IMG/VR virus record: IMGVR_UViG_3300016472_000106
Location: 1 to 30,559 of that record
Length of the DNA stretch: 30,559 nucleotides
Direction: 5' to 3' (one strand)
Source: a virus
Taxonomy: Duplodnaviria; Caudoviricetes
Positions 3,622-30,554 of this stretch are shown here, in pieces (the stretch's first letter is position 1; each line of letters starts with the position of its first letter). The notes under the pieces were generated by a model. It searched no databases. It saw only the letters and a list, made by a program, of their open reading frames with translations, and was not told the origin of the DNA. The position numbers were made by a program, and so were the translations under genes.

Positions 3622-4022
3622 TGAAAGCATTTAATAAATTGAAGAAAAAAAACGTCCCATTTGAAACAATTTTGGGATTAACTTTCAATGCAATAGAAGT
3701 TCAAGACGATCAAATTGATTTTGCAACCAACACAGGAAGGCATTTTATTATGTATCATCAGCGTGATTGTTGCGAGGAAGTCTATGTAGAAAGCGTAGTT
3801 GGTGATGTTTCCGATTTACTTGATTCCCCAATTTTAATTGCTGAAATGAGCACTAATTGTGACAATCCAAAAGATAAAGATGATAAAAGTCATACATGGA
3901 CTTTTTACAAAATAGCTACAATCAAAGGTTATGTTGATTTGCGTTGGTATGGAAATAGCAACGGATATTACAGCGAAGAAGTTGATTTTTGTGAATATGT
4001 AATTGAAGAAGAAGAATGGTAA
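3621..4022 (+). CDS. Conserved phage hypothetical protein (HxxDCCE / SNGYY motif family)
   Basis: MYHQRDCCEEVY...TWTFYKIATIKGYVDLRWYGNSNGYYSE; TAATG coupling. Confidence 0.75.
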   Translation: MKAFNKLKKKNVPFETILGLTFNAIEVQDDQIDFATNTGRHFIMYHQRDCCEEVYVESVVGDVSDLLDSPILIAEMSTNCDNPKDKDDKSHTWTFYKIATIKGYVDLRWYGNSNGYYSEEVDFCEYVIEEEEW

Positions 4023-6003: not shown

Positions 6004-6416
6004 TGTACACGGCCCCCACCATAAGCATCAATTACTATTAACTGAGCTTCAGGAGCGTTCCCCATTCGATCCATAAACTGCAAAAAAGCGGAGCGACTGG
6101 CTAGGACGGCTGACTCATAACCAAGTTTGCCATATTGCATACCTAATAGGATACACCCATTTGTATTCTTGTGGGTGTTGCCAGCGTGAAACAAAATATG
6201 GTCCCGCTCAGGTACATCCATAACCTGATAGGTAGTTCCAAACTTTGGGCTACGATGTAACTTAACTTTGTACTTACCTTGCGGAATACACGACACCATT
6301 CGCTCGTTATTGCGCCAAGCATCCTCTAGCGTTACAAAACACGGCTCATCATCAATGCACAATACGCCTAGTGTTGCGCCGTTAAACTCCGACACTCGCA
6401 CTAGACGTAATTGCAT
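6000..6416 (-). CDS. DUF5675-family protein, putative endolysin (L,D-transpeptidase-like His/Cys motif)
   Basis: TLEDAW...SCIPQGKYKV...ILFHAGN...TNGCILLG; lies between the tail fibre and the holins. Confidence 0.75.
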   Translation of the reverse strand: MQLRLVRVSEFNGATLGVLCIDDEPCFVTLEDAWRNNERMVSCIPQGKYKVKLHRSPKFGTTYQVMDVPERDHILFHAGNTHKNTNGCILLGMQYGKLGYESAVLASRSAFLQFMDRMGNAPEAQLIVIDAYGGGRVH

Positions 6417-29181: not shown

Positions 29182-29391
29182 CTATGCGATGTCGTTGAGC
29201 AATTCGGTGAACTCCTCTGTCGTCATACCGCTCGCTTGTAGCAACGCCAGTATCTCGCACATGTGATACATGCGCTTGCATCTCTCTCTATACCTTAGTG
29301 CTACCGGCGATATACCTATCAGCTCGCCAAATGCGACTCTCGTAAGTCCTAAGCGCTTCCGTATTGCTTGATACAAGTTACCCTTTGACAT
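29182..29391 (-). CDS. XRE/Cro-like HTH transcriptional regulator (69 aa)
   Basis: IRKRLGLTRVAFGELIGISPVALRYRE. Start placed at MSKGN because the track's extension overlaps the divergent promoter. Confidence 0.8.
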   Translation of the reverse strand: MSKGNLYQAIRKRLGLTRVAFGELIGISPVALRYRERCKRMYHMCEILALLQASGMTTEEFTELLNDIA

Positions 29392-29520
29392 AGGCAGGGT
29401 ATGATAGTGTCCGACCTTAATCCTAGCGTTAGGTCGCTTGTGTAGTTTGTTATGGTGTTGGCTGACATTAGGCCACATACCCAACCCTGCACTTTTTTCC
29501 CGATCCTTGTCAAATCCCTC

Positions 29521-29548
29521 TTGCGTATCCGACAGGAACCAGTATAGT
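29521..29548 (+). promoter_or_regulatory. Sigma70-like promoter of the early operon
   Basis: TTGCGT-16 nt-TATAGT. Predicted +1 near 29555 coincides with hairpin ATGAGTCG-AAT-CGGCTCAT. Confidence 0.55.
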
Positions 29549-29573
29549 GCGGTCATGAGTCGAATCGGCTCAT

Positions 29574-29593
29574 ACTAACTAACTAACTAACTA
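29574..29593 (+). repeat. (ACTA)5 tract before RBS
   Basis: Directly visible; recurs at 29844 and 30543. Confidence 0.9.
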
Positions 29594-29603
29594 GGGAAAA
29601 TAT

Positions 29604-29795
29604 ATGAAACTAAAAGACATTCAAGAGAAGTATGCGTTCATAGCTACGATCAATCGTAGCAACTCAAGTTATGGTAACTATGCTGTGAGACTCAAGATGC
29701 CCGTAAATCATATAGAATTCTTTTTTCGCTTACCTGAAATAGTCAAGTTTCTGGATAGTCACGTTAAAGATTTACGATCGGGCAATTGTTTATAG
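29604..29795 (+). CDS. Hypothetical early protein
   Basis: 63 aa; AGGGA SD after the ACTA tract; the stop abuts the ribozyme. Confidence 0.7.
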   Translation: MKLKDIQEKYAFIATINRSNSSYGNYAVRLKMPVNHIEFFFRLPEIVKFLDSHVKDLRSGNCL

Positions 29796-29845
29796 GTCGA
29801 AACTCCCTTTGGGGAGTCTAGGCGTTATGCGCCTACTGATGAGAC
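29796..29845 (+). ncRNA. Type II hammerhead self-cleaving ribozyme
   Basis: GTC-GAAA-CTCCC(TTTG)GGGAG-TC|-TAGGCG(TTATG)CGCCTA-CTGATGA-GAC. Complete catalytic core, three stems, GUC cleavage after 29818. Confidence 0.92.
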
Positions 29846-29859
29846 TAACTAACTAACTA
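29844..29859 (+). repeat. (ACTA)4 tract before RBS
   Basis: Begins within stem II of the hammerhead; followed by GCGAGG and ATG 29870. Confidence 0.9.
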
Positions 29860-29869
29860 GCGAGGCAAT

Positions 29870-30232
29870 ATGCATAAAAAAATTGAACAGATTGTACAAG
29901 AACATATCGAAGTACCTGAGGATATCAGACGACTAGCGAGCATGGCTACTATGGATTTATTGTGGGGTCCGATAGGACTCGACGATGATTGGGAGGTAGA
30001 AAACTATCAAGATTTCCAATCGGCCTGTAAACGGATTTCAGATTGGATCGACACATTGCCGGGGGAAATGTGGGTGGATGTCGATTGCGAGTTTGTTATG
30101 TATTCCGAGCCGACTTCCGAAGAAGTTGATGGAGAAGTTGTCGAGCCATGCTGGGAGTCAATTTACTATGTTCAAGGTCGAAGTGACGTAGTCGAGATGG
30201 TTTTGAATCACTATTTATGCGGGTATGTATAG
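29870..30232 (+). CDS. Highly acidic hypothetical early protein
   Basis: 120 aa, D/E- and W-rich; GAGG SD. Confidence 0.75.
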   Translation: MHKKIEQIVQEHIEVPEDIRRLASMATMDLLWGPIGLDDDWEVENYQDFQSACKRISDWIDTLPGEMWVDVDCEFVMYSEPTSEEVDGEVVEPCWESIYYVQGRSDVVEMVLNHYLCGYV

Positions 30233-30245
30233 ACTAAACCTACTC

Positions 30246-30306
30246 TACTGGATACAGTACAACACAGAGAGCCCTAACGGGCTCTCGATGCTGAACTGAA
30301 TCAGCA
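30246..30306 (+). other. Intergenic structured element (long imperfect hairpin)
   Basis: GAGAGCCC-TAAC-GGGCTCTC core, extendable to about 30248/30304. Confidence 0.6.
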
Positions 30307-30323
30307 ATAACTATGGAGATATT

Positions 30324-30539
30324 ATGGAGACAATTACACACAATCGCAAAACGATTACACCGAATGGCCAAGCATACCTCGATGCGAGCACCAAGTACGG
30401 CTATCACTATACCACACTAGCAACCGATGAGACGGGCAATGAATACCGATTAATCTGGTTAGTCACCGACGAAACTCTTATGTTTGAGGCCGATGAATGT
30501 TGCGATTGGTCACAACCTGACTACGTAGTCCCACAATAA
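30324..30539 (+). CDS. Acidic hypothetical early protein
   Basis: 71 aa; DETGNEYRLIW...CDWSQPD; GGAG SD. Confidence 0.75.
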   Translation: METITHNRKTITPNGQAYLDASTKYGYHYTTLATDETGNEYRLIWLVTDETLMFEADECCDWSQPDYVVPQ

Positions 30540-30542
30540 CCA

Positions 30543-30554
30543 ACTAACTAACTA
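30543..30554 (+). repeat. (ACTA)3 tract before the RBS (CGGAG) of a gene beyond the window
   Basis: Directly visible at the window end. Confidence 0.85.

Follow-up and report, generated by a model that had tools for sequence, protein, structure and literature searches.

The type II hammerhead ribozymes surveyed by Perreault in 2011 are the closest described relatives of the RNA element considered here. They are very common in bacteria and flank variable genes of prophages; of 18 consensus hammerheads, 14 showed activity, and those clustered in phages underwent cleavage both in vitro and in E. coli (PMC3088659). The same text proposes that they process long phage transcripts into gene-length mRNAs (PMC3088659). 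In two reviews, the role of self-cleaving ribozymes in prokaryotes, phages included, is called open or largely elusive (PMC6155905, PMC6765202).

The window, meaning the whole stretch of 30,559 nucleotides analysed here, comes from a tailed phage (IMG/VR record IMGVR_UViG_3300016472_000106). Like the ribozymes of Perreault and of Rfam family RF02276, the hammerhead near its right end has an open stem II, the same core, an intergenic position in a phage, and small variable genes on its flanks. Unlike them, it appears to lack the pseudoknot between loop I and the 3' tail, its loop I is a pentaloop rather than one of 10-12 nt, its stem II has 4 bp rather than about 3 bp, and RF02276 does not detect it. 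The class, its context, and the idea of mRNA processing are already in Perreault 2011 (PMC3088659), so the original prediction overstated the novelty of the locus. What is useful in it is a blind spot of Rfam, a covarying contact made of a single pair, and swaps of the element ahead of or behind matched genes. No account of the compact type II subtype, the reciprocal covariation, or the exchange of hammerheads for RNase III sites came up in a literature search that covered few subscription papers; passages of PMC10085705 and PMC13725137 add nothing further on the compact subtype.

The hammerhead and its genomic setting

The virus record is linear and 91% complete (CheckV). The sequencing runs that contain its DNA are labelled as freshwater metagenomes, with no RNA run among those listed, and the phage is uncultivated. 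The best match of its terminase among cultured phages is 42%. An 82% terminase match lies on a 2.5-kb contig of an Oligoflexales MAG (L237, match 1-1203), a contig that may be mis-binned, and it gives a weak hint of Oligoflexales as the host. The minus strand carries the genes for the terminase, the portal, the major head protein, and a lytic tail protein. A series of small plus-strand genes without known family occupies the right end and diverges from a gene with weak helix-turn-helix matches (Table 1), and this layout suggests that the operon with the hammerhead is an early one. A direct search for relatives of the downstream gene gave none in viral contigs and one in metagenome contigs. The operon promoter is probably near 29486-29570, in a block (29486-29585) that is retained in relatives; a search of the plus strand for a sigma-70 promoter found none. 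Short CTGT..ACAG near-palindromes recur around likely promoters of plus-strand operons in L133 (around 3713-3755 and 6285-6330) and likewise in promoter-like regions of L151, L159, and L191, and it is possible that they are operators for the divergent helix-turn-helix protein. At the other end of the window, a 38-nt direct repeat (1643-1680 and 1990-2027, 92% identical) encodes the same short N-terminal-like peptide in two adjacent plus-strand genes.

The hammerhead is followed by a (TAAC)n repeat, further copies of which lie at 29574-29593 and 30537-30554. The pattern has seven matches in three clusters, against 0.13 expected, and it is a general leader; two of its three sites in the window have no hammerhead. 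These leaders stand ahead of ribosome sites and give stop codons in all three frames. They are also points of gene exchange among relatives, and the contig itself terminates within the 30537-30554 copy.

Table 1. Genes and RNA features around the hammerhead, in window coordinates
Feature	Position	Strand	Remark
Divergent helix-turn-helix gene (weak matches)	29182..29556	-	
Upstream gene, 63 aa, no family	29604..29795	+	stop codon overlaps stem II
Compact (pentaloop) type II hammerhead ribozyme	29794..29846	+	predicted cut C29818/U29819
A 5'-adjacent to stem II (11.5)	29794	+	predicted partner of U29825 (1.7)
Stem II, 4 bp, open end	29795..29798 with 29843-29846	+	98.6% of cells paired, 35 relatives
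GAAA core, stem III, and C17	29799..29818	+	GAAA 29799-802
Stem I, 6 bp, pentaloop 29825-29	29819..29835	+	TAGGCG 29819-24 / CGCCTA 29830-35
CUGAUGA catalytic core	29836..29842	+	
(TAAC)n leader and ribosome-binding region	29844..29869	+	repeat itself 29844-29859
Downstream gene, 120 aa, acidic, no family	29870..30232	+	3 homologues at 59-68%
Long hairpin, second RNA element	30254..30306	+	z -4.99; 38 nt before next ATG
Third gene, 71 aa, no family	30324..30539	+	other gene in its place in co-occurring variant

The original prediction of a type II hammerhead with a complete conserved core, on the sense strand of a phage operon, agrees with the sequence, and its parts lie where it had placed them: GTC 29796-98 with GAC 29843-45, GAAA 29799-802, CTCCC 29803-07 with GGGAG 29812-16, TAGGCG with CGCCTA, and CTGATGA. 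The element has the CUGANGA core, the GAAA, and the UH triplet with an A15.1-U16.1 pair that define the class (U16.1 is 29817 and C17 is 29818). It is also permuted as a type II, with loops closing stems I and III and an open stem II that carries the 5' and 3' ends. Stem III has 6 bp (29802-07 / 29812-17) and a loop at 29808-11, the letters 29809-11 of which vary in relatives. The fourth pair of stem II is G29795.U29846, which a change of G29795>A turns into A-U in a relative. The element was said to start directly after the upstream stop; the two are indeed adjacent, but the TAG (29793-95) overlaps the foot of stem II. The cut is predicted after 29818, as before, and the downstream piece would open with a hairpin 51 nt before the AUG (ATG 29870). 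One metagenome contig matches 29450-30308 with 0 differences, and a contig from a different study matches 29779-30322 with 2.

Could the match be due to chance, or be a dead relic that no longer cleaves? A descriptor for hammerhead types I-III has its sole match at this site in the 30,559 bases on both strands, and none of 300 dinucleotide shuffles gives any hammerhead, even with looser stem lengths. Folded at minimum energy, 29785-29870 takes on the topology of a hammerhead, with a weak stem II (pairing probability just 0.36-0.38). The energy of this fold is unremarkable (z -1.18), as a relic's might be, and a relic would also agree with the outcome of the Infernal search that had been proposed as a check: the Rfam Hammerhead_II model (RF02276) has no match in the window at the gathering score (37 bits) or at E values up to 10. 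In addition, 4 of the 18 consensus hammerheads of Perreault were inactive (PMC3088659). However, the Rfam model misses all 25 compact copies tested, and the relatives keep an intact core and compensated stems. Compensatory stem changes are found in the orthologue L133, and 13 of 16 pairs have two-sided changes in 35 other copies (preselected for pairing); in stem I this holds for 6 of 6 pairs, which are 100% paired in the 35 relatives. A model, R1, scores the window element at 71.4 bits (E ~6e-20). It was trained on 35 other compact copies, all of them with a stem III that is short and neither L180 nor the orthologue L133 among them, and the training set was collected by a pattern from this element, so the score confirms the subtype and not independence. 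The element is a real type II hammerhead and very probably active, and a chance match or a dead relic is extremely improbable.

Two subtypes and the probable contact joining stems I and II

A core pattern from this element, scanned over 6 of the 64 parts of IMG/VR, gave 132 loci (about 1300 stretches are estimated overall), and in 130 of these the descriptor accepts a structure. Sorted by how long stem-loop I is, the 165 distinct copies comprise 103 long ones (20-25 nt), 57 compact ones (17 nt, the window's own copy included), and 5 others. The compact architecture combines a stem I of 6 bp with a pentaloop and a stem II of 4 bp (56 of 57). A Shine-Dalgarno sequence and an ATG lie downstream of 143 of the 165 hammerheads, at a median of 56 nt from the cut. 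In 20 loci chosen to include both kinds, RF02276, the consensus of which is the long kind, detects 14 of 22 long copies and 0 of 25 compact ones. Since compact copies make up about one third of the collection (57/165), Rfam-based tallies of the ribozymes in phages are probably underestimates. Some phage contigs (L044-L048) carry at least six consecutive type II hammerheads, one ahead of nearly every small gene, and L047 has at least eight compact copies.

In the natural hammerheads, stems I and II are held together by a tertiary contact, and two candidates can be considered for this one. The first is the pairing, put forward in the original prediction, of GUUA at the boundary of stem I and loop I with UAAC of the downstream repeat, which the active fold would need if it followed the Perreault/Rfam type II consensus. 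The letters are complementary, and the pairing is possible both in the window and in the orthologue L133. A pseudoknot of loop I with the tail is also present in most type II hammerheads of PMC3088659. The 103 long-loop copies collected here have it as well, with a mean of 4.9 bp against 3.0 bp permuted, a value that 0 of 1000 permutations reach. In the compact copies, however, the pairing is not conserved. It is possible in only 7 of 57, and 40.7% of cells are paired over the 35 relatives. There is no excess over permutation, with 2.33 bp observed and 2.36 bp permuted for an 8-nt tail (633 of 1000 permutations reach the observed value) and 346 of 1000 reaching it for an 18-nt tail. The pairing would also use G29824, the closing base of stem I; contigs of two runs with the same downstream gene carry A29827>T; and the TAAC repeat stands just as well ahead of two hammerhead-free places in the window. 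The element is not counted with the pseudoknotted type II consensus, which has at least 4 bp between loop I and the 3' tail, and an active fold that depends on this pseudoknot is very improbable. A different pairing, of loop I with the region of the start codon, seemed possible in the window and in L133. Over 48 compact copies it is weak (43 of 1000 permutations reach it with standard pairs, 285 of 1000 with G.U), and it was rejected.

The second candidate, and the one preferred here, is that stems I and II are docked by the single contact U29825-A29794, as the covariation of the two positions suggests. The search pattern fixed neither position 1.7 nor position 11.5 (11.5 being five bases before GAAA). 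Among the compact copies, 54 of 57 have U1.7 with A11.5 and the remaining 3 have A1.7 with U11.5 (Fisher p 3e-5), and the U1.7:A11.5 pair is kept in 35 of 35 relatives. A prospective scan of IMG/VR for copies with a 17-nt stem-loop I and without A at 11.5 gave 41 distinct matches, 31 of which fold; three of the 31 were already known. Position 1.7 is A in 30 of them, opposite U11.5 in 28, C in one, and G in one, and the lone exception is U:U. The folding filter removed ten matches, namely eight long-loop copies out of register and two compact near-misses, and these two are also U11.5/A1.7. The A1.7:U11.5 copies share other letters and, from their sequences, may descend from few ancestors or events. 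[quoted passage not shown]

Contacts of this kind are known in other hammerheads. A Hoogsteen contact of U1.7 with an A of loop II occurs in types I and III (O'Rourke et al., as given in PMC11875169). Figure S5 of Perreault 2011 tallies U..A loop contacts for all three types (PMC3088659), which means that type II copies without a pseudoknot were foreseen there. As in the Schistosoma and sTRSV ribozymes, the U is unpaired and seven bases past the cut, and the A immediately adjoins a stem II of 4 bp, on the strand leading to GAAA. Unlike in those ribozymes, the A is in an open 5' arm and not in a tetraloop, and the reciprocal A1.7:U11.5 occurs naturally, in 28 of the 31 copies without the A. The reciprocal covariation of U:A and A:U is natural evidence that one base pair can be the contact that links stem I to stem II. 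In L238-L281, the copies of a reciprocal sub-subtype have a U before stem II, a loop I of A-N-N-N-A, and a U after stem II; a second contact may join the last base of the loop to the base that follows stem II.

A second RNA element, the CA/GA hairpin

The long hairpin behind the downstream gene has a lower stem of about 11 bp (30254-64/30289-99), a 2x2 loop of CA/GA, and an 8-bp upper stem (30267-74/30279-86), and part of it can form an alternative hairpin (30289-30306). In the window copy, 3 of the 11 lower-stem positions are mismatched, and this stem is absent from the fold of a wider context. In contigs of the runs X6, X9, and X10, the upper stem is rewritten with every pair kept. The hairpin recurs across the clade, as a lower stem of about 11 bp, a 2x2 loop, and an upper stem of 8-11 bp, located 27-43 nt before an ATG. 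Across 17 copies, 18 of 19 pairs have two-sided changes and 91.6% of cells are paired (11 + 2 + 8 positions). The 3' arm, which would be the 3' product of a cut, is predicted to refold as a 5' hairpin in 16 of the 17.

Copies are found in L139 (4271, 4606, and 4920), L159 (6608 and 7597), and L191 (2925 and 3691), all on the minus strand, and in others. Hairpins with other loop letters (GA/CA, GA/GA, and others) have the same length and the alternative 3' hairpin; they occur, again on the minus strand, in L170 (1953), L172 (1172), L173 (4064), L175 (164), and L198 (6723 and 7074). An initial pattern for the element gave three matches in which the structure is not evident, and Rfam has no match to the window element or to three of the L139 copies. 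A terminator-like match on the minus strand (30267-86) turned out to be the upper stem of this element, and a role as terminator was set aside because the hairpin copies precede ribosome sites on the sense strand.

The RNase III processing sites of phage T7 lie between its early genes. The hairpin is like them in having about 21 helix positions with a central 2x2 mismatch, in being intergenic and near a ribosome site, and in that a cut in it would leave terminal hairpins. It is unlike them in that the letters CA/GA are strongly kept, the alternative fold of the 3' arm is conserved, and there is no Rfam family. Substrates of RNase III are about 22 bp long and single cuts in them can leave stabilising hairpins, and the determinants in the proximal and distal boxes are described as degenerate, according to PMC3867540. 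The duplex here has the length of such a site (about two helical turns, with central mismatches tolerated), and by its modelled geometry the hairpin would be an RNase III-like site.

Another reading is that the CA/GA hairpin is itself a self-cleaving RNA of an undescribed class, so that the shuffled-cassette operon of this clade would use two interchangeable self-cutting insulators. Sharing slots with hammerheads was a clue to twister, twister sister, pistol, and hatchet (PMC6765202), and the core A-CA/GA-U does not vary among the 17 aligned copies, which had been selected for CA/GA, or among the 12 of 12 copies (one subfamily) that a search leaving the loop free brought up. In a wider set of loop-free descriptor matches, enriched for the same subfamily, the loop is CA/GA in 25 of 38, with a few clear variants such as GA/CA. 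The element is nonetheless a simple hairpin in which few bases are conserved, and its loop has variants, which makes a new self-cleaving class decidedly unlikely.

Exchange of elements and proposed processing of the message

In the contigs of relatives, three intergenic blocks are kept (29486-29585, ~29790-29855, and ~30240-30313) and the genes adjacent to them change, by gene-sized replacements between leaders. L133, L186, and L187, the terminases of which are 86% identical to that of the window, have an orthologous hammerhead at the same position, with different neighbour genes and a compensated stem I. The same genes are also found with different elements. Behind a homologue of the upstream gene there is a hammerhead (the window and X7), a hairpin (L191, protein 81% identical), or nothing (L190). 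Ahead of a homologue of the downstream gene there is a hammerhead (X4, X6, and X7), the 3' half of a hairpin (X8 and X9, a swap that rests on a 30-letter loose end), or nothing (L159 and L219). The runs X8-X10 have small word shares and were used only for matching contig pieces. Another gene, 71% identical between the two contigs, has a hairpin ahead of it in L139 and, in L180, a hammerhead of the compact subtype. A loose regex also gave two "hammerheads", one in L139 and one in L162, that were dropped for lack of stems. The stretch upstream of the terminase is 4 kb or longer in 29 of 80 terminase relatives, and of these 3 have a hammerhead (two identical), 12 a hairpin, 2 both, and 16 neither; the filters behind these counts were strict and some of the stretches may be non-syntenic.

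Such rarity of the hammerhead in the clade also fits a recent, near-neutral arrival, and one could consider the ribozyme a passenger: carried along in cassettes of leader and gene when these recombine at their (TAAC)n-SD sequences, it would cut RNA with little effect on the phage. The patchy distribution (3 of 29 relatives), the same genes without any element in L159, L190, and L219, and the exchange of genes at leaders all point this way. A passenger, on the other hand, would not be expected to keep its stems through compensatory changes or its constant position before an SD and ATG across unrelated phages, nor would an unrelated structure be expected in the same slot before the same genes. 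A mere passenger is rather unlikely.

The preferred reading, which is held to be probable, is that the hammerhead splits the message into hairpin-ended pieces, that it is optional and interchangeable with the RNase III-like site, and that it raises the lifetime of the downstream message. The ribozyme would fold during transcription, dock through U29825-A29794, and cut after C29818. The upstream piece would then end at its 3' side in stem III with a cyclic phosphate, and the downstream piece would begin with a 5'-OH and stem I, followed by the A/C-rich (TAAC)n leader and the ribosome site. The pieces would part because merely 4 bp of stem II join them after the cut. In this way each gene cassette would get protected ends of its own regardless of the gene upstream, and the lifetime of the downstream message would most likely be raised. 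At the hairpin of 30254-30306, the RNase III of the host would bring about the same outcome, and the released 3' arm is predicted to refold as a 5' hairpin. Since the hairpin fits the length of an RNase III substrate and would leave the same types of ends, the hammerhead may be a substitute that is independent of the host. The same genes occur without any element, which suggests that the device tunes expression rather than enabling it.

In hosts with RNase E, 5'-OH ends and terminal hairpins slow the decay of RNA. The engineered RiboJ works in a like manner, in that a hammerhead cut before the ribosome-binding site strips the upstream context and leaves a 5' hairpin; it is synthetic, derived from sTRSV with an added hairpin, so the analogy is one of working and not of family. 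With this hammerhead and hairpin before the ribosome-binding site, mRNA went up about twofold and protein two- to tenfold (PMC6206723). The 5'-OH product of the glmS ribozyme is degraded, by contrast (PMC6765202), so the sign of the effect depends on the host. Unmasking of the ribosome site by the cut is not predicted, either for the hammerhead (SD/AUG accessibility 0.49-0.51 uncut and 0.42 cut) or for the hairpin (0.57 to 0.54), and this idea was rejected.

The glmS precedent (PMC6765202, as above) also lends itself to the opposite reading, in which the ribozyme is active but its cut lowers or gates expression, either by starting decay of the downstream piece or by occurring only when the upstream stop is free of ribosomes, which would couple the cut to the translation of the upstream gene. 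The upstream stop overlaps A29794 and G29795. Across the survey, 99 of 159 hammerheads have the end of the upstream open frame no more than 5 nt from GAAA, a number that is 41.7 +/- 4.5 in the control. That closeness is a trait of the long-loop copies (77 of 99), whereas only 19 of 55 compact ones have it, and tight intergenic packing accounts for the adjacency. Decay is countered by the strong SD and unstructured leader past the cut in 143 of 165 copies and by the hairpin with which the product starts. A cut that lowers or gates expression is unlikely. Returning to the protective reading, one gene is found in nature with a hammerhead, an RNase III-like hairpin, or no element ahead of it, so that the idea of processing can be tested three ways. 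At 53 nt, the compact ribozymes could be of use as small insulators of expression.

Spacers of a third kind are seen in L236. In the intergenic gaps about 3330-3800 bases upstream of its terminase, a short hairpin rich in GC, then TTTA and a ribosome site, is repeated ahead of three small genes.
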